A stretch of DNA of 64,000 nucleotides from positions 4,114-68,113 of the forward strand of contig CAZSOV010000005.1 in the NCBI GenBank assembly GCA_964608505.1, read 5' to 3'. Numbering within the stretch: the stretch's first letter is position 1; each line of letters begins with the position of its first letter. The position numbers were made by a program, and so were the translations under genes. The notes under the pieces were generated by a model that had not been told where the DNA came from, searched no databases, and was given only the letters and a program-made list of their open reading frames with translations. The stretch comes from an uncultured Verrucomicrobiota bacterium (lineage in GTDB: Bacteria > Verrucomicrobiota > Verrucomicrobiia > Limisphaerales > CAIMTB01). Positions 31,710-63,194 of the stretch are shown here, piece after piece.

Positions 31710-31727
31710 AGGAGAGGCCTCCAGCCA

Positions 31728-32120: not shown

Positions 32121-32316
32121 GCGCTGCGATTTACCATGGCGTTCCCGCCTCCCATCGTTCGGAGGAGCCGGGATTGTCCCTGCATGCCCACGCTCCGTCC
32201 GTTGCCGCACGCGCGGTCCGGGGATACGAAGTGCAGAGAGCCTTGATGGAGTGACGGTCCGACGCCGGCGTGCCCGTGGTCATGTCCGGCCTCCGTCGCG
32301 GGAAGGTTCGTGGATT

Positions 32317-32915: not shown

Positions 32916-34400
32916 TTACGCCGGTCCCTGGACCGAGCCGAGCGTCTGCCTTCGCTCGTCGCCTCGCGACGTCGGGGTCGGGTCGGGGCCGCCGCGCGGC
33001 AGTTCGACGACGAAGGTGCTGCCAGCGCCGAGTTCGCTGCGGACCTCGACGCGTCCGCCGTGGGCCTCCACGAGGGCCTTGACCATCGCCAGCCCGAGAC
33101 CGGCACCGCCGGCGGCCCGGTTACGGGCCGAATCGACGCGGTAAAACCGGTCGAACAGGCGGGGGAGATGTTCGGGGGCGATGCCGGGGCCCTGATCCTC
33201 GACCTCGACGACGACGGGGCCGGTCCCGCCGTCGGATCGGACGCGGAGGATGACGGCGTCCCCGTCGGTGGAATGGCGGATGGCGTTCTCGGCGAGGTTG
33301 ACGAGGACGCGTTCGAGGGCGACGGGATCGCCGACGAGCGCGGCGTGGGAAGGGGCCTCGCAACGGAGGAGGACCCCGGACTTCTCCGCGACGGGCTGCA
33401 GTTTGCGGGCGAGGTCGCGGCAGAGGGCGGCAAGACAGCAAGGCTGAAGGGAGGCGAGCACCTCGCCGGCATCGGCCCGGGCGAGGGCGAGAAGACCGTC
33501 GGTGAGCCGGGCCAGGCGCAGCACTTCCTCGAGGTTGCTGCGAAGGATCGCGCGGTAGCGGTCGGGTTCTCGATCCTTGCGCAGGGCGACCTGGATTTCG
33601 CCTCGGAGGATGGTGAGGGGCGTTCGCAGTTCGTGCGCGGCATCGGCGAGGAACCGCTGCTGGGAGGCGTGGAGACGGTGCAAACGGTCCAGGAGGGCAT
33701 TGAAGGCGGCCACCAACCGGCGGAGTTCGCCGTCGCCGCGGGGCATGGCGAGCTGGGTGAAGCCGAGGTCGCCCCGGCCCAGCTGCTCCGCGGCCTCCGC
33801 GGCCAGGGTGAGGGAGCGGGTCCAGACTCCCACCAGGAGATAGGTGACGAGGATCGCGGCTCCGGTCAGGGAGAGGAGCCGGATGCGCATGGCGGACTTG
33901 AGTTCCAAGGCGCGTTGCTGGAGGTCGGCGAGTCGTACGGCGGCGACGGTCCAACCCGCGGGGGGGCGGGCGATGTGGGCGCCATGGCCGAGGGGATACC
34001 AGGCGGCGGCAAAGCTCTCCTGGTTGGGACCGGTGACGAGAGCGGCATGCGGCTCGCGCCAGGGGTCAGCATTCGTGAGGTAGGCCGCGGGAACCGAGAA
34101 GTCGCCCTCCGGGAAATAGCGGGAGGCCTGGCGGCGGTCGAATCGCCCGTCGGCCGCGAGCACCGCGCCGTGAAAGCCCTGCACCTCCTCGCGGAAGGTG
34201 GCGCGCAGGGGTTCGTCGAACTCGGCGCGGTCCACCGGCACCCAGCGACCGAGGCGGATGGTCTTGTCCTTGGCCATCTCGAGGGCGTTCTGGCGGGTCC
34301 AGTCGAGGGTGACGGAGTAGTAGCGGACGGCGAAGGCCAGAAGGCAGCCGAAGACCAGGAGCCCAACGCCCAGCGCGACCTGTGCCCGGACGCTGGTCAT
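32916..34400 (-). CDS. Sensor histidine kinase (2 TM, periplasmic domain, HAMP, HisKA, HATPase_c)
   Basis: H-box FLADAAHELRTPLTILRGEIQVAL. N/G boxes VLVNLAENAIRHS ... VEVEDQGPGIAPEHLPRLFDRFYRVD ... GGAGLGLAMVKALVEAHGGRVEV. Confidence 0.92.
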   Translation of the reverse strand: MTSVRAQVALGVGLLVFGCLLAFAVRYYSVTLDWTRQNALEMAKDKTIRLGRWVPVDRAEFDEPLRATFREEVQGFHGAVLAADGRFDRRQASRYFPEGDFSVPAAYLTNADPWREPHAALVTGPNQESFAAAWYPLGHGAHIARPPAGWTVAAVRLADLQQRALELKSAMRIRLLSLTGAAILVTYLLVGVWTRSLTLAAEAAEQLGRGDLGFTQLAMPRGDGELRRLVAAFNALLDRLHRLHASQQRFLADAAHELRTPLTILRGEIQVALRKDREPDRYRAILRSNLEEVLRLARLTDGLLALARADAGEVLASLQPCCLAALCRDLARKLQPVAEKSGVLLRCEAPSHAALVGDPVALERVLVNLAENAIRHSTDGDAVILRVRSDGGTGPVVVEVEDQGPGIAPEHLPRLFDRFYRVDSARNRAAGGAGLGLAMVKALVEAHGGRVEVRSELGAGSTFVVELPRGGPDPTPTSRGDERRQTLGSVQGPA

Positions 34401-34533
34401 GGGAGGAGACCTCTCCGCTCGAACCGTGCGTGGGGACCACCCACGGCGGACCGCACGTCGCCGCGTGAGGGCACGCGGCCTACAGCGACCTGGCCCGGTG
34501 CCCTCGCCGGGCGGTGCGGTGGTCGTGGGCGGT

Positions 34534-35229
34534 TCATGGCGAGCCCGGGGTTCCGTCGTTGCCTTCGCGGAGCAGGTAACCCACGCCGCGGACGGTGTGG
34601 AGCAGGCGCGTCGGGTGGCCCTTGTCGATCCGCGCGCGGAGGTGATGGACGGTCACGTCGATGACATTGCTCAGGGGGTCCAGATCCTCGTCCCAGGCGT
34701 GCTCGGCGAGTTCGGCACGTCCGACCACCTGGTTTTTGCGGAGGAGCAGGTATTCGAGGACGGCGAATTGCTTTCCGGAGACCTCGATGCGCCGTCCCGC
34801 GCGCTCCACGACGCGCGTTCGCCGATGCACGACGAGGTCGCCGCAGCACAACTCGTCGCTGACCATCGCCTGCGGACGACGCAGCAGGGCGGCGATGCGG
34901 GCCAGCAATTCGTCGAAGTCGAAGGGTTTGGCCAGGTAATCGTCCGCCCCGCCGTTCAAGCCCGTCAGGCGATCCGCGACGGCGTCGCGCGCGGTCAGCA
35001 TCAGCACGCGGGCGGTGCAGCCGCGGGCGCGAAGGGCACGAAGCACGGCAAACCCGTCGCGCTTGGGCAGCATCACGTCGAGCAGGATCACGTCGTAGGC
35101 GGTGTTCAACGCGCGGTACTCCCCTTCCTCGCCGTCGCGCGCGATGTCGACGGCGAACGACTGTTCGCGCAGGCCTTCCGCGAGAAAGGCCGCCACCTTG
35201 TCCTCGTCCTCGACCACCAGAATACGCAC
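34534..35229 (-). CDS. OmpR/PhoB-family response regulator
   Basis: GTG start giving VRILVVEDEDKV ... VILLDVMLPKRDG ... VLMLTARD ... GADDYLAKPF. Winged-helix part LSGKQFAVLEYLLLR ... TVRGVGYLL. The track ORF extends to 35511, but the giant gene stop is at 35348. Confidence 0.9.
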   Translation of the reverse strand: MRILVVEDEDKVAAFLAEGLREQSFAVDIARDGEEGEYRALNTAYDVILLDVMLPKRDGFAVLRALRARGCTARVLMLTARDAVADRLTGLNGGADDYLAKPFDFDELLARIAALLRRPQAMVSDELCCGDLVVHRRTRVVERAGRRIEVSGKQFAVLEYLLLRKNQVVGRAELAEHAWDEDLDPLSNVIDVTVHHLRARIDKGHPTRLLHTVRGVGYLLREGNDGTPGSP

Positions 35230-35347
35230 CGCGTCCCGAGCATCCCCCGCGCAGGCGCGGGGATCAACCGCGGCAAGCCGGGGCGTTTCGGAGCCCGAAC
35301 GCGCCGGCGTGGGAAAGGCCTCGCACACGTGGAAAGCGTTCCTTGCA

Positions 35348-38300
35348 TCACCAATCGGTTTCGCGGAACCGGAAGAACGCCGCGCCGCCGGATGGCCACC
35401 GGATCCGCAATCGATGCACCCGGGTGCGGCCCTCGCCATCCCCGGCGACCGCGGTCTCGGAGGCGTCCGCCTCCACGGGCTGCCAATCCCGCAGGTCGGT
35501 GCTCGCTTCAATTCGGAACCGGACGCCGGCGGCGCTGGACCATTCCAGCTCGAACTCGGGGAAGTCGACAGAACCGGCCTCCGGCCCGGGCATGGCCGCC
35601 GGTTTCAGGGCGCGGACGCCGGAGCCCGGGCCGGGCCGGACACCGAGGGGCGTCGAGGGCGGGATCACGTCGGGCGGCGGGCCGGTGACGGTGCCGCCGA
35701 GCACCGGGAAGGCGCGGACGCGGATGTTGCTTCGGCTCTGGCCGTCGAGGCGCCCGCGGTTGACGAGCGTCGCGCCGGCCTCGAGGAAGAGCGTGTCGTC
35801 GACGCGCAGCACGGTGTTCGGGCCGACCTCCAGGCGACCGCGGACACGGACGGAACCTTCGACGTCCTGCCGGAACCCGGACCATTCAAGACTCCCCCCG
35901 GGGCCGGACACGATGGGGAACTCGCCGCGGATGCCGAGGGAGGAGGCGGCAAAGAGGACGTCGAGATCGCCGAAGTCGACGGGCCCGAGCAGGAGGATTT
36001 CGTCGCCGCGATACCAGTGCAGCGTGCCCTCACCGAGGAAGCGCGCGTCGGCGGCGATGGTGTTCGTGGCGCCCTCGAAGCGAGCCTCGGCCCCGTCGGC
36101 CACCGTCCAGGCCCCGGCCAGGGTCACGGGTCCACCGAGGTCGAGACGCCCGCCGAGGATGTCCCAGTTCCCGCTGCCGGAGGATTCGAGATCGAAATCG
36201 GCGACCTCGGCGCCTTCCTTGCGCAGGGTGCCGTCGTTGCGCAGGCGCCCGTAGCCGCCGGACGTCCAGGCGTAGGTGGTATCGTCGAGCGCGAGGAGAC
36301 CGCCGGAGAGGATGCGAAGCGTCCCGTCATCGAAGGTGAGGCGGGCCGAGTTGGTCATGGCGAACGTGCCAGCGATGTCGAGCGTGCCGGCGAGTCGCAT
36401 GCCGTTGAAACCGGAGGCCCTCGCGGTGGCGGTCGCGTCCACGGTCACCGGCCCGGCGCCGGCGACATCGCCCCCGGCCCAGACGAAGGATCGACCGATC
36501 CCGACGCGATCCCCGGCGTTCAGGGTGCCGAAGGTCATCCGCAGATCGCGGAGCCGCGAGGGGCGGAGCAATTCGAGCGTGCCGGCACGGATTTCGGTGA
36601 GACCGAGGTTGGTGAGGCTCTGACCGACGCGCACGTTGCCGCCGGACACGACCAGTGTCCCCTCCGGGGTGAACGCGCCGTCGACGACATGTTCCCCGGA
36701 GTGGAACTCGATGGCGCCCTCGCCGCCGAGGAGGCTGCCGGGAAGGTGGCGGAAGGAATTCTGGAAGTACGCGGTGCCGCCGGACGGCACCCGCAGCTGG
36801 GTCGCGTTGGTCCCGCCGTCGAACCAGATGTCGGTCGCCCCGAGTTCCTGGCGTCCGTGGGCGGCGAACGCGACGCCGCCGAACCGGACGTAGTTGGTCC
36901 CGGCCACAAAGGTGCCCTCGTTGAGGAACAGGTTTGTCGTGGAGTTCCCGGACAGCGTCGTATAGCCGCTGAACCGCACCTCGCCACGGTTGATCCAGCG
37001 CGCCGCGTCGAACGTCACGAACACGAAGGGATCGACCTCGATCCGTCCCTCGTTGGTCAGGTCCACGCCCAACTGAAGACCGCCGCCCCCGATGTGCCCG
37101 ACGAGGTTGGTGCCGAGGAGGAGTCTTCCGCCGCCGGAGAAGGTGCTGCTGCCGAGTTCGAGGGTGCGGTTGACCCGAAGGTCGGCCCGGAGCACCCACT
37201 CCGTGGACTGCACGTCCAGCGCGTCGAGGACATGGGGCACGTCGAGGATGACCTGTCCACCCTGCGACTGGACGGTGCCACCGGGCGGCAGAGGTCGCCG
37301 GACGCGGACCATGGCGCCGCGATTGGCCCAGGCGCCGAGCGGCTCGAAGGCCCCGAGCAGGTCATGCGTGCCCGCGTCAAAGCGGATCTCGCCCGGCCCG
37401 CCGAGGAAGGAACCGGGGGCATAAAGGATGGTCGAAGCCAGTTCGAGCGCGGCGCCGTCCGCCACGCGGAGCTCACCGTCATGGGTGGACTCGGACTGGA
37501 TCTGAAGGGTGCCCTCGCGGACGTCGACCACGCCGCGGTTGTGGAGCACGAGCCACCAGAGGAAGGCGCGGTCCTCGCCGAGTTTGACGAGTGTGCCGGT
37601 ATTTTCGATGACGGCACCGTCGACGGGGAGGGCTCCCGTGAGCGTGACGGCGCCATGCAGCTCGGTGCGTCCGGAAAGAAGCAGCGTCGCGCGCTGGAGA
37701 CGCAGGGTGGCGTTGGTGTCGAAGATCGCGTTGCCCGCCACGCGCGTCGGGCGCTCGAGCACGAGCTGCCGGAAGGGCGGGATCCGCAGTTCGGCCCCCG
37801 CCGGGATGTCGAGCGAGCCCTGCCCGGAGAGGGTGCCGTACTCGGATTCGAGCAGCTTCGTCACGGTGACGGGACCGGGACCGTCGAGTTCGCCGGAGGC
37901 CAGCCGGAGTTGGTTCCAGGTCTGGGCGACGGCATTGGTGACCGAGGTGGAGGCGAGGAGGATGCCGGAGGCAAACTCGAGCGGGGCATCGATCCGTCCG
38001 ACGACACTTTCGAGGGCGAGTTCGCCGACCCCGCGGTTGGTGGAGCCGGGGGCGAATTCGACGGTGCCCGACTGCAGGGTGAGAGGTCCCTGCTCGGCCC
38101 GCAGCAGTCCGGCCTGGCGGAATCGGAACCCGACGATCGGATGCTCGTTGGTGCCGCGCTTCACCCATTCGCCGCGGTTTTCGAGGACGGGCCGACCGAA
38201 CTGGGACCGGATCTGGGCGCGATCCTGAACGACGCGTCCGCCGGCCTCGTTCGTGAATCCCGGCCCGCCGAACAACCAGGTCATGTTGGTGGAGATCAAA

Positions 38301-41300
38301 ACGGACCCGAGGTTGATCAGGGGCGCCTCGAAACGCGCGGTGCCGCCGAGCGCGGAACCGACAACCTCGAGACGTCCGGTCGGCTGCACGTGGACCGATC
38401 CGGGGCCGGAGACGTTGGCGGTGGAGAGGCGCAGGGTGCCCGCGACGTCGAGGCGGCCCTGGCCCTGGAGCGTGGCTCCGCCTTCCAGGAGGAGCAGGCC
38501 CGTGGCGGGCACGGTGCTGGGTCCGTTGATGCCCAGCGAACCGCCCGAAAGCCGGAGGGTCTGGATGCCGCTCCCGGCACCGCCGACGGTCAGCGACTCG
38601 ACGAAGACATTGCCGCTCAACCGCACCGCGTAGGTGCCCGGCAGATCGATGACCGCGTTGGTGCCGATGCCCGGCACGCCCGCGGTCCAGTTGGTGCGAT
38701 TGGCCCAATCGCCGTCGACGGGACGGGCCCAGCGGGTGAACCGCGAGTTGGCGCGGTCCTCGACCACGACGGGGATGGCGATGTTGGAGGTGATGAGCGA
38801 GAACGCGCGCCGGGCCGTGACCTGGAAGGTGACGACATGCGTGCCGGCGTCCTGGAACGACGGCCGGAGCAACACCCGACGCACGATGGGATTCGTCCCC
38901 GTGTGCCAGAAGTCCGCGAACCCGACGAAGGCCGGTCGCGGCAGGTCCGGCGCGAAATCGAGCGATACCAGGGTGAGGCCCGTTGCCGTCGCTGTCACCG
39001 CATTCGTCACGGACTCGCCCTCGCCCACCGTCATGGACGCGGGCGCGAGCACGAGCGCCTCGCCGGCGGCGCAGGGGGCGAGATCGTCGCCGTCCGGAAT
39101 CCCGTCGTCATCGGAGTCCGGATCGAGCGGACTCGGGCAGCCGCCGGTTCCTGGTTCGTCGCCATCGACGACGCGGTCGCCGTCGGTGTCGCTGTCGAAG
39201 GGATCGGTGCCGGCGAGGAACTCGGCGCGGTTGGGAAGCCGGTCGAAATCGAAATCCTCCGAGGCGTCCGCGGCAAGGAAGGGATCGAAGCGCCGGAGGC
39301 CGTGGACGAAGGAACGATCCGCCTCCCAGGCGTTGGGCAGGCCGTCGCCGTCGTCGTCGCCGTCGCGGCTCCGCAGGTCCAGCGCGACCTCGGGCAGGAC
39401 GAACTCCGTTCGCCCGGAGCGCACGGAGCGCGCGAGGAGACGGACGGACGGAGCGTTCGTCGGCACGACGACGCGGAACCGGGTACCGTCGGCGGGGAAG
39501 GTGTACACGTTGGCAGCCACTCCGTTCACGGCGAGTTGCCAGCCGCCGAACACGGAGTGATGCCGGACATCGATCTCGAGCGTCTGCCCCGGCACGGCGG
39601 GGACGCCGTTCGCCACGGACAGGCCCTGGACGTCCGCGACCCGGAACGTCTCGGAGCGGCCTTCGGCGGGCCAGGCCGCCCCGTCGGCGAGGTTGACGGC
39701 GTTGCCGTCGAGCCCGACCCAGCCGGGGAGCAGCCGCAACCGGACCTCCGTGCCCGGCGGCAAGGCGGGTCCGGTGGGCTGCACCGCCACCGAGGTTCCC
39801 GAAATGGTGACCCGGCGGGGGAGCGAACGGCCGTCCGCGGACAGGATCTCGAGCAGGTTGGTGTCGCAACGCCGGGCATCGAGGCTGGCATCGAAGTCCA
39901 CGTAGAGCGTGGACCACGGCGAGATGGGCTCGTCGTGGGGCGCGACCCAGACGTAGCCGAGATCCGCGGCGGCGATGCGGGCCAGGCGGGGTCCGACCAC
40001 GGAGCGCAGTCGGTAGGAGCGGGAAGTCCGCACCTCGTTGCCGGCGTCGTCGCTGGCGGTCAGATTGAGGACCACATTGCCGCCGCGCAGTCCGTCCGCG
40101 AGGGAGATCGGGAGTTCCTCGCGCCGGGGCACGTTGGGTTCCACGTCGAAGTCGAACCGGCGTTCGAAGATCACCGTCCCGGTCGCCGCGACGTTCCAAC
40201 GCAAGCGCCGCGAATTGTCGGACAATGTCGCGACGACCCGCAGCGGTTCGCGCGGGTCCAGCTCCGCGCGGTCCAGGGGCAACTCCGGCGTCATCCGGGG
40301 CGGCGTCGCGTCGCGGGTCGCGTACGTCAGCCGCGCGAGGTCCGACGCGGCGCCCGAATCGTCGTAGGCGGTCGCCTGCACCTCCACGGTGCCGCCGGCC
40401 AACGCCGCGGAGGGGAAGTCGAACACGAGATTCGTCGCGACGCCGTTCGGCGGCAGGAACAACTCGCGCGTCGCCGTGACCGCGCCGCGCAGTTCCACGC
40501 GCACCGCCGCCACCGTGGCATCGTCACGGGCGAGGACGGCGAAGCCGAAGCGGCGCCCGGTCTCGAGCGGACCGGACGGCGGCTCGACGCGCATCAGCTC
40601 CACGACCGGACGTTCGTTCGGTCCGACGCGGAGTTCGAGGACGGCGGCTTCGCCCGGATTGCCGGCGCGATCCACGCCGGTGGCCAGGAGGCGCACCGAA
40701 CCTTCCGCCGGCAGACGCACGGCGAACGAGTAGACCGGCCCGTCGGTGGCGACCCCCAGCTCCGTACCGTTGCGTGACCAACGCACCACGGCATCCGTCT
40801 CGGACGACTCGAGCAGCGCCTCGACCATGACGGTGGCGTTCGCGACGGGTCGCTGCCCTTCCCGCAACCGCAGGACGGCCACCCGCGGCCCCCGCGTGTC
40901 GAGCGTCGAGAAGCGGTTCGTCGTCGGCAACGCCACGTTCCCCGACAGGTCCTCGACGCCCCGCAGCTCGACGCGATAGGCGGTATCCGGAAGCAACGGG
41001 CGCGCCGGCACCCAGGCCAGAACCCGACCGTTCGGATTCAGTCCGGCGGCGCCGTCGACGCGCACCGTCCCGGCCCAGAGCGCCACGTCGATGCGGTTCG
41101 TGCGGATCGGTTCATCGAATTCCCAGCGCAATCCGGCCATGGGCTCCACCTCGGCGGCCTCGGGACCGGGGAAGGCGAGCAAGGTCACCGGCGGCAGGTA
41201 GTCGCGCACGGTGAAGGAAAGGAGTTCCGTGCGGGCCAACGGGCGTCGCTCGAGATCCTCCGGCCCGCGGGACACCGGGCGGCCCGAGGCATCGACGTCA

Positions 41301-54200: not shown

Positions 54201-57200
54201 GCGTCACCGTACGCACCATCTCGTGCGGCGGCACGCCGTCCAGCACGCCGGCCAGCGCATAGTACCCCGCGGCGCCCGTCGGAAAATACTCGTACCGGGT
54301 GACCATGCCGTTCGGATCGGTCCACTCGACCAGGTTGTGCGCGTTCGGTCCGCCTTGCTCGGGGGTGTACACGTATCGGTCGGTGCGGGTCTCTGCCGCC
54401 GACGCCCCGACCCGCGTGACGTTCGTGAGATGACCGACGTCGTCGTAGGCGTACCGGATTTCGAGACCCAACAGATCGGGACTGCCCTGCCGGTTGAACC
54501 CGCGCAGGGCCACCATCCGGTCCGCGCCCGCGATCCTCCGGTACTCGAACCGGAACCCGCGCTTGGGCAGGCCCGTCGGGTCGAACTCGGTCACCGTGTC
54601 GAGCGTCTCGCGGTTGGCATCCCCGTCCTCGTACGCCAGGCGCAGCTCGTTCCCGTTGGGTTCGCGGACGGACTGCAACGGGAAGACGCGTCCGGACGAG
54701 GTGCCGCGGGAGCCGTCGACGAGGAAGTGGTAACGCACGGCGGATTTCGTGAAGTACCACGCCTCCGCCGGGCGTCCGGTGTCCCGCGCCAGCACGGAGT
54801 GGTAACCGACCTGGGCGCGGAAGAACTCCCAGCGCCCGCTGGCCGCGGGCAGGAAGCGCGCGTAACGCGCCTCGCGGACGGGGTCGGGGACGGGATCGAC
54901 GAACGCGTGTCCGGTTCCCTCGCCGCCGACCACGGTGAACACGCCGCAACGTTCCTCGAGACGTATGTGATGGTTGTGGGTCCAACCCGCGCCGAGCGGT
55001 CCCGCCGAACCGTTGCCACTGCTCGAGTACGTGCGCGAGAAGTCGAGGGCCAGCTTCCGGCCCGGCACCGCCACGTCCTGGCGCGCGTGGGTCAGGTGCC
55101 CGTCCCACAGGTCCACGCCCTGGATCACCGCGTGGCCGATGGGGAAGGAGTGGTTCATCTCCACCTCGTGCTCGATCATCCCGGACACCGTCAGCGTCCG
55201 GTCCGGAGCCAATCCCGCGAACCGCGTGCCGACCGCTTCCACCGGGAACTCGCCGGCGCGCGGCAGATGCGCCGCGTCCACCAGCACCCGGTGCGAACCC
55301 GCCGTGAACGCGACGTTGGTGAAGACCGGAATGGAACGTCCCAGTTCGTCCAGCCCGCCGGTCAACGGACGCCCGTCCAGGAGGATCGTGATCTCGGCGT
55401 CCGGGTTCACCTCGAACTCGAGCCACGCGCTTCCCGGGCACGCGCGCTGGTTGACCCGGTCCACCGTGGTCCGCACCACGACCGGCGTTTCCAGGTTCAA
55501 CGACGGCGACAGGACGGACACGGGGCGGGCGACGCTCGCGCCCAGTCGCACCGGGGCCGCGTTGGGCGGCGGGTTCGCGACCAGGGTGCCCAGGCCCGAA
55601 AAGGGCCCGAGCACCGGGTTCGGGGCCATGCTCTCCGGGATGCCCACGCGCACCCGGCTGCCCGCCCGCAGAACCACCTGGACCCCGCGCGCGGGTTGCA
55701 GGTCCGCCGCTCCGGACGCGTCGTCCGCCAGCGACAACGGTCCCGACACGTAGGCGTTGAACGCCGGGGACAGGGCGTCGTGGCTCAACCGGTGCAGCAC
55801 CACCGCATCGTCGAACGACGCGAGCAGCGAGTTCGTCCCGGCCGCCAGCGTGCCGTCCGGTCCCAGGCTCATGACCGCCAGCCGGATCGTGCTCCCGGCA
55901 CCGCCGGGCGCCTCCACCATCACGTGCCAGCGGAATGCCGGGTCCGTCGCGGGCAACGCCGCGTTCGTGCCCTGCCCGATGACCGGAAGTTGCGGCGGCT
56001 CGACCAGGGCCCGCAGCGCGGCGAAGCGCTCCTCGGGATCGATCACGGCCATCGCCTCCGCCGTCGCGCGGCCCGCGGGCAGCAGCCGCACCCAGGGCGC
56101 GCTCTGGCTCACGACGTTCAGGTTGCGCAGGCTGGCCGCGGTCACGCCGCTGCCCAGCACCGCGAACGGCGTCACCCCCGCGCCCGCCCCCGAGATGCGG
56201 CCCAGGATCGCCGGGTGCACCCCGGACGCCCCGACGGGCGCGAGCAGTTTCGCGACGTCCAGGAACACCAGGTCCATGCCCGACGGGCGCGCGAGGGAAA
56301 GCGCGACGCGACCGCGGTCATCCAGCTCGGCGCCCTGCAACAGACCGTACTCCGAGACGGGCAACGGAATCTCGCCCGCTTCCACGAGGAAGTCCGGGCG
56401 CGACGCGTCGATGATGCGCAGCGAATTGGTCGCGTTGTCCGCGCTGATGAGGTTCACGAGGACCAACCGCCGCAACGCCGAGGGCACCGGGAGCAGGCGC
56501 TTCGGGTACCATCCGGGGAACTCAAGCACGTAGCCGTTCGGGATGGCTGGTGGCAGCGCGGTGTCGGGCGATGCCCCTCCGATCACGTAGGCCCGCAGCG
56601 CCGCCGGACGGTTCCAGGTGTTCGTCCGCACCGGGCGCCAGTCCACTTCCATCACCTGATCGATCCCGGAGGTGGTCAGCAGCAGGGCCAGGGAGCCCGC
56701 CCCGTCCGCCACGGCGTCGGTGATGTACCGCCCCGAGCGCACGAGATGATACGCCCCCGCGTCGGTGGTCCGGTTCGGCGCCAGCGACAACACGGCCTCC
56801 TCGCCCACCACGAGTTCCAGCGTGTCCTGTCCCTGCACCGGCAATGCCTCGCCCGCGTCGACGAAGTCGCCGTCGAGGTTCAGGTCCCGTCCCGGCTGGT
56901 ACCGCGGTGGCAGGGTGTCGAGCACGTCCCGGGGCACCTCCCGATAGGCGTCACCGAGCAGGAGGGATTGGAGGTTGAGCACGTGGACCTGCGGCGCGAA
57001 CGCCGAGTTCTCGGTGAGCAGCAGGTAGGGAGCCGACCACGAGAGCCGCGTGAGCAGCGCCGTCTCGTCCATGCTGATCGGGCCCCCGGCCACGTGAGGC
57101 GCGACCGCGAAGTTCTCGCCGAGTTCGTAGACCCGGATGTAGCCCCAGGCCGCCCCCTGGGTCTGGCCCGCGACGACGATCAGGTCCCCGCGCTTCACGG

Positions 57201-60200
57201 CGCCCGGTCTCGAACCCGGCACCCCGGGTTGCTCGAAGGCGAGGGTGTATTGGTAATCGGGCACCAGCACCATCGCCCGTGCCGGACCCGGCAGCGCTCG
57301 GGCATCGAGCCGCACCGGGCGCGCCGGAATCGAGACGTCGTACCGGTTCAACGTCTGTTCCCTCCGATCCAGAACGTACGCGTACGCCCCCCGCACCGCC
57401 ACGCCGCCGCCCTCGGTCACGCCGGACAAGGCCCCCAGCACCGCCGGCGCCGTCCGGAACCGCAGCACGAACGGCTCGTTCGTCGGTGCCGACGTCGTCG
57501 GGTCCTGATCCAGATATTGTCCCGTCAAATCCTGCACCCCCGCCACGTTCAACACGTACTCGCGGCCGTTCTCGAGCGCGGGAAATCGCAAGGTGACCTC
57601 CCTCGGGTCCGCGAGCATCGACGCCTGCACCGGACCGCCCGCCGGACTCAGCGTCACGTATTGCGACGGGTTGCGCGCCAGGTCCGGACTCACCCATTCG
57701 CTGAACCGCAGCCGGAATTCCGCCAGCGGATCCACGCCCATCGCGCCTTCGTCCGGCTGGGAGTACAGCACGCGCGGCCCGAGCGGATCGTTGACCGGGG
57801 CCAGCGGCGCCGGCGGGTCCCCCACCCGCACCACGTGCAGCGTCTCCCCGGAATTGCCGAACGCATCCGTCGCCCGCGCCCGCAGCACGACCTTGGCCTT
57901 CGCGTTCGCGGTCACCTCCCACGCCCCCGGCAATCCCGCCACCAACGTCACCAACGCCGTCGCCGGTTCCACCGATTCCACCGTCAACGTCGAGCTCGCC
58001 GGCCCGCTCTCGTCCACCGCCTCCACCCGCACCCCGACCCGGTCGCCCGGCGCCGGTTGCACCGGACGATGCAGCACCGTGATCGACGGCGGCGTCGTGT
58101 CCGGGGTCGCCTCCCGGTTGAACCGGATCTTGCCGCCGCCGAACGGGTGGATGGGATCGAACCGCGTGCCCGCCGAGCTCGTCGCGAATTGCCGGGGAAA
58201 CGACGGATGCGTCGCCGTCAGGACGTGCCCCTGCCCCGGGCTTCCCTGCCCCGTCTGCTCCGGCACGAGAAACGCGAATCTTCCGTCCCCGCCGCTGGTC
58301 ACCACCAGTTCCCCGCCCTGCAGGCTGAACGGTCGCGAGTTCAACGCCGACAACGCCCGCGCCCGCACCACCGCTCCGCCCAGCGGCACGTCGGTGTCCG
58401 GATCAGCGTCCAGGCCGCCGCGGAACAACGCCGACGTGGTCTGCCCGATCAGCTCCGTGTTCGAGTAGTACACGTTGCCCACGAGCATCACCCGCGCCGC
58501 CGCCGGATCGACGAAGGCGTAGAAGCCCGCAAACAACGCCGCCGGCTCCCGCCGCCCCGCCAACGCCAACGACAGGGCCCGCGCCGCCCCACCCGCACCC
58601 GCACCCGCCGGTGTCAGCACCGACAAATACTCGTACACCGGCACCGTCCGCTCTGCCCCGTCCGCGAATTCCGTGATCTCGCGGAACGCCGTCGCCATGA
58701 GCGTCAGGTCGTCCAGCGTCCGCCCCGGCGGCGGCACCCACCGGCCCGGCTCCGGACGTACCTCAATCCGGACCTTCCCCTGCACCGCATCCCCCTCCAC
58801 CGCCAGATCGAACCCGCCGAACAACGTCGCGTCCTCCGGTGCCGTGCCCTGCGTCGCCGCACCCAGCTCCTCCGCGCGCAGCGGCGTCAGCCGGAAGCGC
58901 GTCCGCCCCAACACCGCCCCCGCCGGCACGTCCAACACGATCTGGAGATCGTCGTTCCGGTTGGTCACCCGCCCGCCCTCGCTGAACAACGCCACGCTCC
59001 CGTCCGGGAACAACTGGCGCCCCACCGGATACGTCGACCGCGTGCCGTCCGGATGCACGAGGACCACGCTCAACCGATCCCCCTCGTCCGCCGCCAGGCG
59101 CTGCGCGAAACTCCCGTCCGGCTCCGTGAAACCCGACGAGGTCCGACCGGTCGTCCCGTTCACGAACAGGATCGGCTGGCGCGGCAGGCCCATGCCCGGA
59201 CTTCCCCGCACCCACGCCTCCCCGTTCGCATCCGGCGCCTCGCTGACCAGTTGCGCCCCCGCCGCCCGCTCGAACTTCCGCGCCACCGTCGTGAACCCGA
59301 ACTCCCGCGCGCCGATCAACCGGTTCCCGCGCGCGTCCTCCACCGTCGCCCCCACCCGCACGACGTGCGCCGTCGCCTCGGCCAGTTCGTTCGACGCGAT
59401 CAACCGCGCGACCCGGCCCTCGTCCTCCCACTCCAACCGCGCCGGCACCGCGTTGGAACGCGCGTCCAGCAGTTCCACCCCGGGTCCGCCGCCCCCCACC
59501 CGCACCGCCTTGCTGAACCGGACCACGACCGGCGTCAGCAAGCCCACGTCCACCGCCCCCGCCGCCGGAACGACCTCCGCCACGAACGGAGCCGCCGCCG
59601 CCGTCGTCATTGCCACCGCCTCCGCCACCCGCGTGGCCGGCATCGTGAACGCGCGGCTCGCCGCCTCGCCCGTCACCGGATCCCGCGTCACCAGCATCCC
59701 GTCCCCCACCCCAGCGACCAATCGAAAGCCTCCCGCCGCGTCCGTCCGCGCGCCCCACGGCGTCCCCGCCACCCGCACCTCCGCGCCGCGCACCGCCGCC
59801 CCTGCCGCGTCCCGCAACGTCCCGGCCACGATCCCCACCCCCGAGGTCACCCGCACCAGCACGTACTGCCCGGAACGATCCACGCCCGACAACGCCGCCG
59901 CACCGTCCGTCGTCGACTCCGACACCGTGCCCCCGCCGACGGTCCACGCCGCGACCGGTTCCAGTCCGGTCTCCGCGCCCTCGTACCAGCGCCGGGCCAG
60001 CACGTAGTTCCCGTCCTGCGGCGCCGGATCGAAGCGCACGCGCCACCGGTCGCCCGGACCGCCCATGCCCGCCGCCAGCGCGAACGCCGCGACCCCGTCG
60101 CCCAAGGACGCCGCATTGGTTTCGAACCCCACCTCCACCGCGCGGCCCGGCTGATTCGCCGGCCCCTCCGTCGACACCACCAGGCCCGACACCTTCAGAT

Positions 60201-62010
60201 CGCCGCGCACCCCGCCCACCACCCCGCCCGCGAAGGCGGCCTCCGGCAGAATCTCCGCCGTGATCCGCGCCTCCTCCAACCGCGCCGCCCCCATCAACAG
60301 CCCCGGACGAAGGGGGAACTCCGCGAATGCGCTCGACGCGCCGTCCCGCCCGACCCGCCGACGCAACGTCAACGACGCCTCGTAGCCCATCGGCGCACGC
60401 ACGCTGCCGTCCGCCAGCCGGTACTCCTCCCGGACCCAGGCCCGCAACGCCGTCCCGCTCGGGATCGACCCCAGCCGGTTCGTCACCTCCAACTCCGCCA
60501 TGCCCCGGACCTCCACCACGTTGGTCGAGGCCACCACCGCGCCCGGCCGGACCCGACCCCAGGCCAGCCAACCGGAGACATCGACCACCCGCGCCGCGCG
60601 CTCCGGCAGCACCACCCCCGGCACGGGTATGGGCACGGCCACGGGGACCGCCCCCTGCGTCGCCGCGCCCTCCGCGTCCGCCGACACCACCGCATACGCG
60701 GCGGGTTCCGGCAGCGCGAACTCGATCCAGTCACTTTCCCGCGCCGAACCGTTTTCCACGACGCGCCACGCGAGGTTCGCGGCGTCGAACCGCGCCAGCA
60801 CCACCGGCGCGGGCGTCGCGGGAAACACGTCCTCCGTCCGCACCCCCACCCGTGTCCCCGCCGGCCATGCACCCGGCGCCTCGGCCCACCACGCGCGTTG
60901 CAGCGACCAACCCAGCGGCAGAGGGAACGGCAACGCCTGCGACTCCAGCACCGTCACCTCGACCCCCGACCCCGCCGCCGCGCCGCCCGCGAACGTGCCC
61001 GCGTCGACCCGCAACCGGTTCGTGATCTCGCGCCATCCCCCGCCCGTCGTCGGTCGTATCACCCATCCCGACCGTCGTGTCAGCCGGGGCGTGGACAACT
61101 TCACGACCTCCAACGCCTCGAGCCGCGCCGTCCGCCAGACCGGCAGGTACCCCTCTGCCTCGAATCGCCATCGGTATTCCCCGGGCTTCCCGCCCAGCGA
61201 CACCGCCCCCGCCTCCGGGTCGCTGGTCAGCGTCGCCGCGCCCGCCGGCAACAACGGCGTCACCCGCGCCCCGCCCATCGGACGACCCTCCCCGTCCAGC
61301 ACCCGCGTGAACGCCAGCGGCTCCTCCACCGGCCTCGTCCGCGCCGCCACGTAGACCCGCGTCGACAACACCGGCGCCTCGTTTCCGAGCCTGCCGAGCG
61401 TGATCGACCGCGCCCTCGTGGTTTCCCCCGGGGCCAGCACCCCGTCGCCCGTCCCGCCCGACAGATCCCAGAAGCGCGGTTCCTCCGCCGGACTCCCGGC
61501 CACGTTGTCCGCGTCCCCCGGACCGCTCGTGCCCCGTGACTCCGCCACCGCCAGCAGCAGCGCACCCGTCAACTCGCCCGCTCCGACGTTGGCCACCGTC
61601 ACCTCCGCCTGCCAGGCGCCCACGAACCGGCTCCACCGCATTCCCGCAAACCGCACCCTCACCTGGCCCGTCACGTCGTCGAACTCCGCCGTCCCGCCCG
61701 CCAACCGGAACGTCCGCGACCCCTCCGCCGCCCCCACCCCCAACCCCAACCCCAGCCACATCCACATCCACACCCACACCCCAACCCAAGCCCACCCTCG
61801 GACCAGCGACCCCCACGTTTGGAACTTTGAACTTGGATCTTGGAGCTTCCCCCACCCGTCATGGCACTCCGCCCCCCACCCTCGGTCAGCGCAACCCACC
61901 CCTTGGAACTTTGAGCTTTGATCTTGGAGCTTCCCCACCTCTCCCCACCCCGGACCCCACCCCCGACCTTCCACCCCTTGGAACTTTGAGCTTTGACCTT
62001 GGAGCTTCAT
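48214..62010 (-). CDS. Giant RHS/YD-repeat protein with teneurin-like layout and novel C-terminal payload (4598 aa from ATG 62010, or 4517 aa from ATG 61767)
   Basis: Dozens of YD repeats (YEYDGLDRV, HEYDALGRRV, HAYDALSRRE, FQYDRLHRLV ...) between about 49.6 and 55.1 kb. Shell start GVDLWDGHLTHARQDVAVPGRKLALDFSRTYSS...GAGWTHN. RHS core end FTGHYRDAETGLHYFGARYYDDEQGRFLGQD...YLYAFGNPLAWVDPTGY, then a 469-aa tail. N-terminal ~2200 aa of Ig-like, CarboxypepD_reg-like and beta-propeller-like units. The track ORF runs to 63219, but that 5' part is an R/G/A-rich shadow of the upstream gene. Confidence 0.9.
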   Translation of the reverse strand: MKLQGQSSKFQGVEGRGWGPGWGEVGKLQDQSSKFQGVGCADRGWGAECHDGWGKLQDPSSKFQTWGSLVRGWAWVGVWVWMWMWLGLGLGVGAAEGSRTFRLAGGTAEFDDVTGQVRVRFAGMRWSRFVGAWQAEVTVANVGAGELTGALLLAVAESRGTSGPGDADNVAGSPAEEPRFWDLSGGTGDGVLAPGETTRARSITLGRLGNEAPVLSTRVYVAARTRPVEEPLAFTRVLDGEGRPMGGARVTPLLPAGAATLTSDPEAGAVSLGGKPGEYRWRFEAEGYLPVWRTARLEALEVVKLSTPRLTRRSGWVIRPTTGGGWREITNRLRVDAGTFAGGAAAGSGVEVTVLESQALPFPLPLGWSLQRAWWAEAPGAWPAGTRVGVRTEDVFPATPAPVVLARFDAANLAWRVVENGSARESDWIEFALPEPAAYAVVSADAEGAATQGAVPVAVPIPVPGVVLPERAARVVDVSGWLAWGRVRPGAVVASTNVVEVRGMAELEVTNRLGSIPSGTALRAWVREEYRLADGSVRAPMGYEASLTLRRRVGRDGASSAFAEFPLRPGLLMGAARLEEARITAEILPEAAFAGGVVGGVRGDLKVSGLVVSTEGPANQPGRAVEVGFETNAASLGDGVAAFALAAGMGGPGDRWRVRFDPAPQDGNYVLARRWYEGAETGLEPVAAWTVGGGTVSESTTDGAAALSGVDRSGQYVLVRVTSGVGIVAGTLRDAAGAAVRGAEVRVAGTPWGARTDAAGGFRLVAGVGDGMLVTRDPVTGEAASRAFTMPATRVAEAVAMTTAAAAPFVAEVVPAAGAVDVGLLTPVVVRFSKAVRVGGGGPGVELLDARSNAVPARLEWEDEGRVARLIASNELAEATAHVVRVGATVEDARGNRLIGAREFGFTTVARKFERAAGAQLVSEAPDANGEAWVRGSPGMGLPRQPILFVNGTTGRTSSGFTEPDGSFAQRLAADEGDRLSVVLVHPDGTRSTYPVGRQLFPDGSVALFSEGGRVTNRNDDLQIVLDVPAGAVLGRTRFRLTPLRAEELGAATQGTAPEDATLFGGFDLAVEGDAVQGKVRIEVRPEPGRWVPPPGRTLDDLTLMATAFREITEFADGAERTVPVYEYLSVLTPAGAGAGGAARALSLALAGRREPAALFAGFYAFVDPAAARVMLVGNVYYSNTELIGQTTSALFRGGLDADPDTDVPLGGAVVRARALSALNSRPFSLQGGELVVTSGGDGRFAFLVPEQTGQGSPGQGHVLTATHPSFPRQFATSSAGTRFDPIHPFGGGKIRFNREATPDTTPPSITVLHRPVQPAPGDRVGVRVEAVDESGPASSTLTVESVEPATALVTLVAGLPGAWEVTANAKAKVVLRARATDAFGNSGETLHVVRVGDPPAPLAPVNDPLGPRVLYSQPDEGAMGVDPLAEFRLRFSEWVSPDLARNPSQYVTLSPAGGPVQASMLADPREVTLRFPALENGREYVLNVAGVQDLTGQYLDQDPTTSAPTNEPFVLRFRTAPAVLGALSGVTEGGGVAVRGAYAYVLDRREQTLNRYDVSIPARPVRLDARALPGPARAMVLVPDYQYTLAFEQPGVPGSRPGAVKRGDLIVVAGQTQGAAWGYIRVYELGENFAVAPHVAGGPISMDETALLTRLSWSAPYLLLTENSAFAPQVHVLNLQSLLLGDAYREVPRDVLDTLPPRYQPGRDLNLDGDFVDAGEALPVQGQDTLELVVGEEAVLSLAPNRTTDAGAYHLVRSGRYITDAVADGAGSLALLLTTSGIDQVMEVDWRPVRTNTWNRPAALRAYVIGGASPDTALPPAIPNGYVLEFPGWYPKRLLPVPSALRRLVLVNLISADNATNSLRIIDASRPDFLVEAGEIPLPVSEYGLLQGAELDDRGRVALSLARPSGMDLVFLDVAKLLAPVGASGVHPAILGRISGAGAGVTPFAVLGSGVTAASLRNLNVVSQSAPWVRLLPAGRATAEAMAVIDPEERFAALRALVEPPQLPVIGQGTNAALPATDPAFRWHVMVEAPGGAGSTIRLAVMSLGPDGTLAAGTNSLLASFDDAVVLHRLSHDALSPAFNAYVSGPLSLADDASGAADLQPARGVQVVLRAGSRVRVGIPESMAPNPVLGPFSGLGTLVANPPPNAAPVRLGASVARPVSVLSPSLNLETPVVVRTTVDRVNQRACPGSAWLEFEVNPDAEITILLDGRPLTGGLDELGRSIPVFTNVAFTAGSHRVLVDAAHLPRAGEFPVEAVGTRFAGLAPDRTLTVSGMIEHEVEMNHSFPIGHAVIQGVDLWDGHLTHARQDVAVPGRKLALDFSRTYSSSGNGSAGPLGAGWTHNHHIRLEERCGVFTVVGGEGTGHAFVDPVPDPVREARYARFLPAASGRWEFFRAQVGYHSVLARDTGRPAEAWYFTKSAVRYHFLVDGSRGTSSGRVFPLQSVREPNGNELRLAYEDGDANRETLDTVTEFDPTGLPKRGFRFEYRRIAGADRMVALRGFNRQGSPDLLGLEIRYAYDDVGHLTNVTRVGASAAETRTDRYVYTPEQGGPNAHNLVEWTDPNGMVTRYEYFPTGAAGYYALAGVLDGVPPHEMVRTVTRVGAARPGFEAAADAVTRFTYDFAGGTRRVSDPRAAAGVPDTVYVLNAYGATLRIEAPLGQTTTMEWATDHLDGSVRDEAGQPVRDVLLTRKVDAEGLETRFEYHDGRGNVTRETTRVAPGKTPVFDRTGAATTTSELVQVYHPVFNVPLSVVDAEGSTTTFAVDDATGNLVRSEDAAGNVTTFEYQPGGDVRVRRDPRGHETRFTRYDAYGNAEVVVDPEGNQVEQTYDERSRLRESRDTFTHHRRIEYDGLDRVISEVRLNDLSGLGGGPDARTGTSYLAGGLVRFQTNALGLVTAHEYDALGRRVRSVQRDVRQVDGSRVSYTNSWQHDVVGNVLRETDARGVTRTHAYDALSRRERTVVSGPHGGPGAGGGLVSAVTFDRVNNTLSEINRHGLTNRYEYDGFHRQSAHHLPVAGARLETRRDRIGNVLRSTDANGRATGFQYDRLHRLVRRTDPEGNATEFGYDAAGNRTLQHDHASGLVTTNAFDRIGRPTLAVLNGPGVPGYVTRTRYDDARNEIRVTNARGFASRVRKDGLDRLVEQVVAEGVLDLTNRMTHDAAGNVLEVVDARNGDVDLVHAYDELGRRLSTRWVATPDDQGRPVTEELAYDGAGQAVWRRDRRGFEHRATFDNLGRPRTQELRESVSGNGAWLVLAETVYDDAANAQDTYDAARNRARIEFDGLGRPRSVRDPVGRTLSTTYDGVNPTVRVDGRGQRTTTVYDGLNRPLVVREFDAAGVERSSITNVYRDSARRREMTDRNGRTTVVEVDALGRETGVWRSGGNLAARYGADPLRLSRTEYDGNSNLVRTEDGDGRVVTHEYDAADRRTASTEGAGTAVAATTRFEFDAVGNVVSAKDPRAHGAAHDVRHEYDARNRRIATSNALGETTRQHYDAANNVVERIDPRGGRTRYEYDELNALLAVDESARGTAADAGVTRFRYDATRNRVAQQDPDGNLVTREFDGLNRMTAVLQHAAPGTLGATANRGAGPGGNAATAFRWTYGYDGNGNPALLVDPRGQRIETSHDHLNRVVQRIYTGHAERTAGNPAEFQPLRIEWVRDGNGNELEIRETKQLGAAAVTERTVQAFDALDRLMERTRHDHDDVAGRRLGFRYDVAGNRTESTDADGRVTRYAYDDRNRLETVTLDAGTGAGALTVGYGWETDGLLRRVDYPGGVSASRAYDAADRLLSITNAAAGGGTVLSSFGYRYDANGNRLEQVEFNPGLGPVPETTRYGYDGLNRLTAVTNGAGASVRYTYAPNGNRLTERGTDFVTGQPMDRVFRYGALPGVTGTFDGMNALTRIEDLLSAARTITYRYDSNLNQVSREQDGIARRFRHDIRDRMIETGEAEAWTRFDYGADRMRVKKISAAGETRYLYDQAAVALEYGPAAAGHVTLRTYDQGGSLLAMGTPRAAGAAGLDRHFYLTDALGSTVHLTAASGAREAEYRYDAWGRLTASASTVANERQFTGHYRDAETGLHYFGARYYDDEQGRFLGQDAFPGEAGTPASLHRYLYAFGNPLAWVDPTGYANEKADAGGGKGGGGGGDDSIREDTGTKKGRSDKDVDPSLRNTVIDSETGEHYVPWWSDRKVIAEARKEAKEAAAQAIRELEQSLDRADKYNEAYLEWSVERGQAEARASMAKVKQLEALVATGGSGDKLQYFTDQLADMVATAGDDPGWAQAVAAGVVKAVGQYVGGALNVGSGLGTLSGKLAVEDTTGVAPSGWDYLAAGADVMQIGGTVGGALANVARASRVREARTAIQSVVSGSADRAEAARALLSPAGLVDDASRLGAVTGIADTWIGRTLRSDEVLTEVVPRVRFDGPILTHLFDPVTKVMSQAELVAAKALPDVAKILDLPERLMGSAMHRLQDIGVGVIGHAESLRLGKPLSAANPARILYDKIILVHDDLVAAAQNGADIAATGSKAEGTFRATDVLRRELIHEVADRAIRSFEKAGMSRPMFLNLEVEDVLLRRIATENPDLARRLGELIGTGKDLFR
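61818..62010 (-). repeat. Three copies of a ~33-nt A/T-richer motif (coding-strand consensus GAAGCTCCAAGRTCAAAGCTCAAAGTTCCAAGG) embedded in G-runs
   Basis: Copies at 61818-61850, 61901-61934 and 61976-62010 (plus-strand TTGGAACTTTGAGCTTTGATCTTGGAGCTTCC). Copy-to-copy spacing is 84 and 75 nt. The array lies between the stop of gene 62010..63194 and the hydrophobic N-terminus of the RHS protein. Confidence 0.85.
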
Positions 62011-63194
62011 CACCTCACCCCTCCCTCGTAGTCGATCCACCACTCCTCGCGTTCCCGGCGCACCCCCTTCATCCGCGTTGCGCCGCGCTCCTCCGACTGC
62101 GCGATCCGGAAGAACCGCACCACGTCGCGCCGTGACACCTGGATCGTCTGCCGCGCCGTGTCGAACCGGGCCAACGGCTCGTCCGCGTAGGGCCCGCACG
62201 GTTGGGCGCTCGATTGCAGACTGAACACCCGCGGGCGGTACTCGAACCCCACCCGCCATTCCCCGGGCCCCGCCACGAACGTCGTGATCGCCATCCGCAC
62301 CTCGCCGCCCACCCGCAGGAAACCCGCCCCCGCTCCCGCCGTCGGGTTCGGCGTCCCGTCCGCCCGCGGCACCCGGAACTCGCGCCGCGCCAGGTCCAGC
62401 ACCGCGTTCGTCACCCGCGCGTACGGTCCCTCCGGACGCGACGCCCGTTCCAGGAACGGACGCGGCTGCGGAAACTCGTAATGGAACTGCCAGTCCTCCG
62501 CCGTCGGGCCCGTCATCCGCAGCGTCACCTCCGAATCCGCACGCAACCGGAAGAACCGTGCCACCCCGCCCGCGAGCAGCCGCATCCGTCTCGACTCCTC
62601 CTCGTACCCCACCCCCATCTCCACCGCGTAGGGGCCCGACGGCGACGACGACGTCTCGAGCAGGAAATACCGAGTCCGCGCCGTCACCTGCACCTCCCGC
62701 ACCCAGGCCACCGACCGTTCCCCGTCTCGATTGTCGAACAGATCCACGAACAACGACGTGCAACACCCCTGCCATGCCAGCGGCACCGTCAACGTCACCG
62801 CGAACGACATCTGCATCGGCCACGTCCCGAACTCCGCCGTCGGCCAGGCCGACGACTCGTGCCGCAACCCCGTCAGGCCCGCGTCCCAGCCCTCCGGCGA
62901 TCCCGCCGGAAGCCACGCGGCCCCGTGCACGTCCGTCACCCCCAGCAGCGCCCCGCCATGTTCCCCGTTCGTTTGCAGCGTCAGGCTCAGCGCGTCCCGG
63001 AACCCCTCCGCCTCCGTCCCTTCCCGCGAACCGAACCCCACCAGAAACGACACCCGATCCAGCCCCACGCCGAACGGCAGCTTCAACGCCACCTCCTCCG
63101 AATGCAGCGCGGTCCCCCCATCCGCCTCCAACCGCGTGCTCCCCGCCCCCCACGCCGGGACCCCCACGCCCAGCACCATCCCGAGACACACCAC
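62010..63194 (-). CDS. Secreted hypothetical protein (~394 aa): beta-sandwich-like N-domain plus three tandem 'GPY...FFR[LI]' modules; start uncertain (GTG 63194/63191 or ATG 63179)
   Basis: Frame of track ORF 62010..63749. Protein-like composition starts at VSWVVVCLGMVLGVGVPAWGAGS (signal peptide). Three modules: LLETSSSPSGPYAVE...VARFFRLRAD, LERASRPEGPYARV...AGFLRVGGE, LQSSAQPCGPYADE...VVRFFRIAQS. The upstream part of the ORF is G/R/P-rich and contains a REP-like hairpin. Confidence 0.75.
   Translation of the reverse strand: MVCLGMVLGVGVPAWGAGSTRLEADGGTALHSEEVALKLPFGVGLDRVSFLVGFGSREGTEAEGFRDALSLTLQTNGEHGGALLGVTDVHGAAWLPAGSPEGWDAGLTGLRHESSAWPTAEFGTWPMQMSFAVTLTVPLAWQGCCTSLFVDLFDNRDGERSVAWVREVQVTARTRYFLLETSSSPSGPYAVEMGVGYEEESRRMRLLAGGVARFFRLRADSEVTLRMTGPTAEDWQFHYEFPQPRPFLERASRPEGPYARVTNAVLDLARREFRVPRADGTPNPTAGAGAGFLRVGGEVRMAITTFVAGPGEWRVGFEYRPRVFSLQSSAQPCGPYADEPLARFDTARQTIQVSRRDVVRFFRIAQSEERGATRMKGVRREREEWWIDYEGGVR

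Follow-up and report, generated by a model that had tools for sequence, protein, structure and literature searches.

RHS and other polymorphic toxins that carry a signal peptide alone are a recognised class, regarded as dependent on Sec and the type II secretion system (T2SS) (Zhang et al. 2012, PMC3482391). The bacterial teneurin-like proteins (TLPs) are likewise Sec-exported toxins, displayed at the surface and built around a YD shell. They are defined by an FN-plug, an NHL propeller and the YD-shell, 96% of them carry a TIP domain, nearly all have an immunity gene immediately downstream, and they have been reported in six phyla, Verrucomicrobiota not among them (Raoelijaona et al. 2026, PMC13018210). 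The locus analysed here lies on a 64,000-nt stretch (the window) of contig CAZSOV010000005.1, from an uncultured Verrucomicrobiota bacterium, and encodes a small secreted protein (SM), a giant RHS protein with a Sec signal (G1) and a second secreted giant (G2). With moderate confidence, we read SM-G1-G2 as a cassette for a Sec-exported, surface-deployed polymorphic effector of the RHS/teneurin-like kind together with its obligate giant partner, and not as an analogue of the Tc toxins. A sequence-only reading of this DNA had suggested an undescribed, autonomously exported apparatus; given the Sec-signal RHS toxins already described (PMC3482391, PMC13018210), autonomous export by itself is no novelty.

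The window is 70% G+C. Coding frames were assigned from maps of open reading frames (ORFs) combined with frame plots of third-position G+C (GC3), the latter because the ORF lists were crowded with spurious long frames. Both approaches bear out the five successive minus-strand genes first proposed for this region: SM, G1, G2, a response regulator (RR) and a histidine kinase (HK) (Table 1). GC3 switches frame at ~62010, which exposes a 5,001-aa ORF extending to 63219 as spurious. In a TGATG (GGTGATGAAG), the last base of the SM stop is also the first of the G1 ATG, and the G1 stop overlaps the G2 ATG as ATGA (CGATGAGG). The gaps further downstream are 118 nt from the G2 stop to the RR start and 133 nt from the RR stop to the HK start. 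In the closest orthologous locus, L172, both the SM/G1 and the G1/G2 junctions are ATGA overlaps, and the SM/G1 junction is ATGA in L003 and L004 too. Since such overlaps recur in relatives, those in the window are not assembly accidents.

By its defining sequence features, G1 is a Sec-signal RHS/YD polymorphic-toxin-type protein. Its cage opens with a DUF6531 plug (residues 2299-2370, 54901-55116; Pfam, 49 bits), continues through RHS repeats (RHS_repeat, PF05593, E=7.9e-86 over 13 stretches; TIGR01643, 172 bits) and ends in an Rhs-associated core (residues 4049-4128, 49627-49866; TIGR03696, 74.1 bits against a cut-off of 32.5) that contains ARYYDDEQGRFLGQDA and, further on, NPLAWVDPTGY. The cage matches the Rhs cores 7q97, 8h8a, 8cp6 and entries beginning 8qj in the PDB. 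When the core was aligned residue by residue with 8h8a and Tse5, the motifs ARYYDxxxGRFxxQD and NPxxWxDPTG[YF] were kept, and the deposited chain 8h8a_A stops exactly at the aligned DPTGF. Pfam TEN_YD-shell matches are on record for G1 orthologues; NHL and TIP were not detected in G1 by Pfam. The long N-terminal part ahead of the cage, which we call the carrier, is the portion common to all upstream giants paired with G2-like genes, and its only PDB matches are immunoglobulin-like (Ig) domains of the Big_5 type. Neither G1 nor G2 has an internal transmembrane segment.

The N-terminus of G1 is unusual in one respect. Homologues start with MK; a classical signal peptide comes next, and then a conserved RTF..F.DV..V.V.Y.GMRWNRS region. 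G1 in the window opens with the same MK, and its first 70 codons fall within three direct repeats, each of about four imperfect heptamers (TCMAAGN), with low GC3 and an in-frame spacing. Their translation in the G1 frame gives KLQxQSSKFQ three times before the hydrophobic signal segment. Neither the homologues nor any of the fetched loci have these repeats, so the mature N-terminus of G1 is uncertain even though the MK start is conserved. They may have arisen by a recent in-frame duplication, act as a regulatory element or form a tract prone to slippage.

Behind the cage, the tail of G1 consists of a helical charged segment, a Gly/Ala-rich hydrophobic stretch (tail residues ~150-220) and a terminal subdomain of ~240 aa. 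It has no Pfam or NCBIfam match, and Pfam stays empty at E<=5. Lys makes up 4.7% of the tail and less than 1% of the rest of G1 and of G2, a compositional break consistent with a separately derived cassette.

In sister loci the cages are 51-67% identical and the tails unrelated or related only in part. YD repeats and an Rhs core with NPxxxRDP[ST]G at its end occur in at least 26 upstream giants; the tails behind this core measure 250-456 aa and form many mutually unrelated groups. Tails of the close clade have in common a helical plus Gly-rich hydrophobic segment of ~100 aa and diverge beyond it. The tails of L011 and L014, for example, are 57% identical over their first 256 residues and unrelated after that. 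The L012 tail groups with that of L014, and the window tail with those of L013 and L172; for L172, the cage is 67% and the tail 73% identical to the window. Judged from these alignments, replacement of the tail at a fixed boundary looks like classic C-terminal displacement, as in polymorphic toxins. Nor is an RHS cage with a tail the only payload. Upstream giants in L008, L016, L031 and L073 carry an α/β-hydrolase (lipase) of LCAT/PGAP1 type instead, and the C-terminal half of the remaining ones has no recognisable domain.

The pairing of the two giants is conserved well beyond this genome. An alignment of the G2 N-terminal module (G2-N) was scanned against one genome per GTDB species and found 276 relatives; the best 80 loci were examined, almost all of them metagenome-assembled genomes (MAGs) of Verrucomicrobiota. 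For 57 Verrucomicrobiota loci, 5 kb or more of upstream sequence was available, and in 51 of these a giant ORF resembling the G1 N-terminal part (G1-N) precedes the G2-like gene on the same strand (tblastn, 25-54% identity), its stop mostly less than 100 nt from the G2-like start or overlapping it. Truncated flanks explain most of the six exceptions. In L011, L013 and L014, an RHS giant directly precedes the G2 orthologue (N-module 62-72% identical), and L012 has the same order, with a retrieved upstream ORF that lacks the N-part. Two genomes carry paralogous pairs: OZ260084 (L031 and L057) and JAFLEF01 (L013 and L037). The giants are thus neighbours in relatives as well, and the conserved unit of SM, RHS giant and second giant that had been suspected recurs in L003-L006, L011-L014 and L172. 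What does not carry over is the RHS-specific make-up of that unit, as RHS is only one of several payloads on G1-N-type giants.

Other genes accompany the pair in some subfamilies. A conserved secreted Gly-rich protein of ~410 aa (AQGFN.GS.G.LGDV...), encoded directly after the G2-like gene in L032 (20283-21515), L033, L038, L066 and L072, may be a third component in its subfamily; the window has no homologue of it. In another subfamily (L007, 9010-9990; L049, L051, L055 and L076), a conserved ORF of ~326 aa lies between the giants, and the G1-N-like giant is shorter, at ~2,250-2,400 aa.

G2 is the conserved partner in the pair. Its N-terminus is signal-type. Homologues of G2-N (n=90, 34-62% identity) come from Verrucomicrobiota, Myxococcota, Acidobacteriota, Chloroflexota and others, and their alignment (A1) has 78 invariant columns. 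Pfam recognises no family in the first 600 aa, and neither whole G2 nor G2-N has a sequence match in the PDB. The AlphaFold2 (AF2) model of G2-N has a mean confidence (pLDDT) of 67, and its fold matches only generic Ig, MG and transglutaminase-barrel β-sandwiches at TM<0.2. The last 1,690 aa, once suggested to be a β-helix, match no Pfam family at E<=5, the one exception being DUF3999, below threshold; this part can be aligned with L011-L014 (alignment A2). Matches to G2 are mostly fragments, because a search of 5.8 billion proteins gave nothing longer than 1,041 aa. A common origin of G1-N and G2-N was considered and rejected (hhalign probability 2.4%; no similarity by blastp).

SM has a short signal peptide, an N-terminal β-sandwich of ~150 aa and three small β-modules ending in RFFR[LI]. 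Its AF2 model is all-β (pLDDT 84), with the sandwich followed by the three modules. It matches nothing in Pfam, NCBIfam or the PDB, Pfam remains empty at E<=5, and a fold search with the model returned no PDB match at E<=0.001. A hidden Markov model (HMM) built from the module finds three copies in SM and has no further match in the window, which agrees with the earlier label of a triple-module protein once the larger N-terminal β-domain is added. The same result rejects the idea of a module common to SM and the C-terminal 'FFRFR' domain of G2. We found 25 homologues of SM, and those with a named source are MAGs of Verrucomicrobiales or Limisphaerales. The N-termini of SM homologues are signal-type. 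Across 20 of them, 33-56% identical to SM of the window, 39 columns are invariant. In every context retrieved (L003, L004, L005, L006 and L172), SM stands directly upstream of an RHS giant of 4,514-4,555 aa, with an ATGA overlap at three of the junctions. On the L011 and L014 contigs, which carry different G1 tails, the SM genes still share 43-46% identity with SM of the window. SM was considered as an immunity protein and rejected on account of its invariant columns, its signal peptide and its conservation beside differing tails.

Upstream of SM, a DUF6174 gene lies directly adjacent in L003 (9199-9879), L004 (9134-9847) and L006 (9392-9952); it was not found in L172 or in the 800 nt upstream of SM in the window. 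That stretch of ~800 nt is apparently non-coding and holds a match to the small RNA motif Acido-Lenti-1 (Rfam RF01687; 63852-63897, minus strand; 38.5 bits, gathering score 37). This motif is on the strand of SM, ~650 nt ahead of that gene, and the sequence of its 3' hairpin recurs 69 nt further upstream (63922-63940). The motif was not found upstream of SM in L003, L004 or L006.

Table 1. Features of the five-gene region, in the order of transcription (window coordinates).
Feature	Position	Strand	Description	Basis
SM	62010..63194	-	394 aa, GTG start	GC3 frame
Three direct repeats	61812..62025	-	~40-55 nt each, spacing 84 and 75 nt, spanning SM stop and G1 start	
G1	48214..62010	-	4,598 aa, Sec-signal RHS giant, whole gene	
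G1 N-part (carrier)	55117..61725	-	residues ~96-2298; Big_5 and CarboxypepD_reg Ig-like domains	Pfam
G1 RHS cage	49627..55116	-	residues 2299-4128; DUF6531 plug, YD/RHS repeats, Rhs-associated core	
G1 C-terminal tail	48217..49626	-	470 aa after DPTGY; presumed payload	
G2	35348..48217	-	4,289 aa, secreted giant partner, whole gene	
G2 N-terminal module	46418..48217	-	600 aa; signal-like hydrophobic segment and three β-sandwich domains	
G2 β-sandwich array	41279..44920	-	CarboxypepD_reg (8 stretches), Big_5 (2 stretches), SdrD_B/SpaA-like	Pfam
G2 C-terminal part	35351..40420	-	1,690 aa, Gly/Leu/Thr/Asn-rich, degenerate repeats	composition
RR	34534..35229	-	231 aa, GTG start; OmpR-family (CopR/CusR-like) response regulator	
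HK	32916..34400	-	494 aa; HAMP/HisKA/HATPase sensor kinase, CusS-like	

The absence of partner genes from the 64 kb, noted at the outset, held up. In Pfam scans that covered virtually every gene of the window, no known secretion, chaperone or immunity partner appeared: no VgrG, Hcp or PAAR of type VI secretion systems (T6SS), no TpsB, no type I (T1SS) or type VII (T7SS) secretion component, and no DUF1795 or DUF4123 chaperone. The two-partner secretion (TPS) domain, FHA repeats and TpsB, which would mark two-partner secretion or contact-dependent inhibition, gave no Pfam or NCBIfam match in the window. Between G1 and G2 there is no room for an immunity ORF, either here or in most relatives, where the two genes overlap or leave a small gap. 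Related loci whose called genes were listed have no secretion-system components within 10 kb.

These results suggest how the locus might work. The three genes SM, G1 and G2 would be a functional unit of a Verrucomicrobiales/Limisphaerales-type bacterium. G1 is an Ig-rich carrier of ~2,200 aa joined to an RHS cage with an aspartyl-protease-type core and an exchangeable tail of 470 aa, the tail presumably held in the cage and freed by autoproteolysis after DPTGY. The helical and Gly-rich hydrophobic segment of the tail hints that the variable terminal subdomain is inserted into a membrane or carried across one. G2, translationally coupled to G1, may serve as a common surface scaffold or fibre, or as a targeting partner, for the payload-bearing giant, and it pairs with G1-type carriers throughout Verrucomicrobiota whatever the payload (RHS and tail, lipase or other). 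SM would assist the RHS version as a clade-specific accessory, in the periplasm or at the surface. The variable tails have no immunity gene beside them, and the payload is therefore more likely to act against non-kin, such as prey, competitors or eukaryotes, than in kin discrimination.

A broader proposal can be put forward tentatively. The giant pair may be a Sec-dependent apparatus for effector deployment, independent of known secretion systems and widespread in Verrucomicrobiota, in which the carrier would present swappable payloads by means of the G2 fibre and no immunity would be needed. Verrucomicrobiota are abundant in soil, water and guts, and to our knowledge hardly anything has been learned of how they interact with other cells. 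If the proposal is true, RHS and lipase effectors would have a new delivery architecture, with one giant swapping payloads and the other invariant. Giant-pair loci would then be a reservoir of orphan effector domains, and the lack of any need for immunity would fit predation on, or antagonism of, other microbes or eukaryotes, habits that are not otherwise known from this phylum.

Several results weigh against the polymorphic-effector reading. RHS toxins and TLPs are normally accompanied by an immunity gene, and its absence here is atypical (PMC8636562, PMC13018210). No component for outer-membrane export or anchoring was identified. Among 1.84 billion representative proteins, the G1 tail has four matches, the two strong ones being a fragment and a 4,514-aa orthologue; a tail confined to its own family is no cassette passed around between known toxin systems. 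Pfam recognises no toxin domain in any of the 11 tails tested, that of the window and ten more. Finally, the distant G2-N relatives L170 and L171, outside the clade, have no upstream G1-like giant, so G2-type proteins can occur or function alone.

With neither toxin nor immunity gene recognisable, an adhesive or structural role stays a serious rival. The giants would then be non-toxic surface architecture, adhesins or an envelope coat using the YD shell for teneurin-like adhesion, and the variable C-termini would help to capture nutrients, as binding or enzymatic modules. The plentiful Ig-like, CarboxypepD_reg and Big_5 domains are of adhesin type, the neighbouring loci encode other giant surface proteins with LamG or PKD domains, and the occurrence of G2-type proteins alone in other phyla fits as well. 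Against this, nothing is missing from the cage, and its core motifs, whose function is to enclose a polypeptide and set it free, are intact. Sharp displacement of the tail at a fixed boundary is a mark of conflict-driven polymorphic effectors, and PGAP1/LCAT-type lipases, the other payloads, are a common effector class. We consider a purely adhesive role rather unlikely on these grounds.

G1 might instead be the cargo of a canonical secretion system (T6SS, T1SS, T2SS or type V, T5SS) encoded elsewhere, with G2 merely a neighbour. The window covers only 64 kb of the genome, and signal-peptide-only toxins have been assigned to the T2SS/Sec route (PMC3482391). Yet G1 has a Sec-type N-terminus and none of the PAAR, VgrG, TPS, RTX or LXG trafficking domains, the listed related loci lack such components nearby, and adjacency of G1-type and G2-type genes in nearly all loci with sufficient flank is not expected of chance neighbours. 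This explanation is improbable.

The two regulatory genes had also been counted as part of the unit. RR (Response_reg, Trans_reg_C) and HK (HAMP, HisKA, HATPase) are an OmpR-type pair that resembles CusR/CusS, with scores under the subfamily cut-offs (for RR against TIGR01387, 228 bits with a cut-off of 279). No RR/HK match was found in any of the 80 G2-like loci, those of the closest relatives stopping before the end of G2. In five loci with sequence beyond the G2-like stop, the gene for the ~410-aa Gly-rich protein comes next, not RR/HK. Conversely, none of the 80 closest metagenome relatives of HK adjoins a G2-like gene; these relatives match only the cytoplasmic half, at no more than 53% identity, and the exact matches to HK are confined to 3-kb contigs of the same organism. 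A metagenome scan with the G2 C-terminal alignment for the downstream context in close relatives found nothing, and a scan for terminators and promoters between G2, RR and HK found nothing above chance. Going by this distribution, RR/HK is probably not part of the SM-G1-G2 unit, and the regulatory role suggested for it lacks support.

The CusRS-like pair may belong instead with a sulfur-related cluster on the plus strand (27775-32844), which ends 71 nt from the 3' end of HK, on the opposite strand and convergent with it. That cluster encodes Sulf_transp, a sulfite-oxidase-like molybdopterin oxidoreductase, DsrE and a DUF6132-thioredoxin protein, and it includes a 5'-nucleotidase C-domain protein, perhaps SoxB-like. 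Beyond it, an 810-aa protein (24857-27289, minus strand) has multihaem cytochrome c motifs (Cytochrome_C7, paired CXXCH) together with PKD and Big_9 domains and is a possible extracellular electron-transfer protein. Two ORFs of ~360-370 aa with an N-terminal IS200-like Y1 transposase domain (3721-4806, minus strand; 19077-20198, plus strand) are far longer than the usual TnpA and may be REP-associated or domesticated paralogues of Y1 transposases. The window also holds genes typical of the Planctomycetes-Verrucomicrobia-Chlamydiae (PVC) superphylum: PSCyt1/PSCyt2/PSD1 and DUF1501.

Among known systems, the Tc (ABC) toxins were the first to be compared with this locus. They too have an RHS cocoon with a C-terminal hypervariable region, adjacent large genes and, as far as we know, no immunity gene. 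The coupling of G1 and G2, their conserved pairing and the weak relation of the G1 core to TccC3/YenC2 speak for a holotoxin of this kind, in which G2 would be the TcA analogue docking the G1 cocoon and RR/HK would control a five-gene operon; it is nevertheless very unlikely, since G2 is a β-sandwich/repeat protein and no TcA-like α-helical pore protein is present, neither G2 nor G2-N matches any PDB chain, TcA included, Pfam finds no SpvB, TcB mid-domain or VRP1 in either giant, G2 pairs also with non-RHS giants that offer no cocoon to dock, and no two-component system is linked to the pair in any other locus examined.

Closer to G1 are the Rhs/YD toxins, such as WapA and the T6SS effectors 7Q97, 8H8A and Tse5, which have the same DUF6531 plug, YD/RHS repeats, Rhs core and DPTG[YF] boundary, and a variable C-terminal tail displaced between relatives. 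G1 differs from them in being 3-4 times larger, with a conserved N-terminal carrier, and in having a Sec signal where they have PAAR/VgrG or LXG. It lacks both the Eag chaperone and the downstream immunity gene, its stop is coupled to the gene of a 4.3-kaa partner, and G1-type tails match no known toxin family. Tandem secreted proteins of several thousand residues with Ig arrays are encoded by consecutive genes in Apilactobacillus kunkeei (Giant1-5, PMC12863079) and in PVC/Omnitrophota bacteria (bioRxiv 10.1101/2023.11.21.568195), and the available parts of these two reports propose them as surface weapons or interaction devices. Those giants belong to other protein families, and the same parts describe neither G1-N/G2-N pairing nor payload swapping. 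In the literature searched, no description turned up of giants in an obligate, translationally coupled pair, of payloads exchanged on a common 2,200-aa carrier or of immunity genes that are systematically missing. The TLPs share with G1 its Sec export, YD shell, adhesion-type N-terminus and polymorphic C-terminal domain. They differ from it in their downstream immunity gene, and a giant partner gene has not been described for them. If the reading of SM-G1-G2 as a surface-deployed effector cassette is right, it would add PVC bacteria to the known carriers of teneurin-like toxins, in a genetic arrangement that follows another logic.

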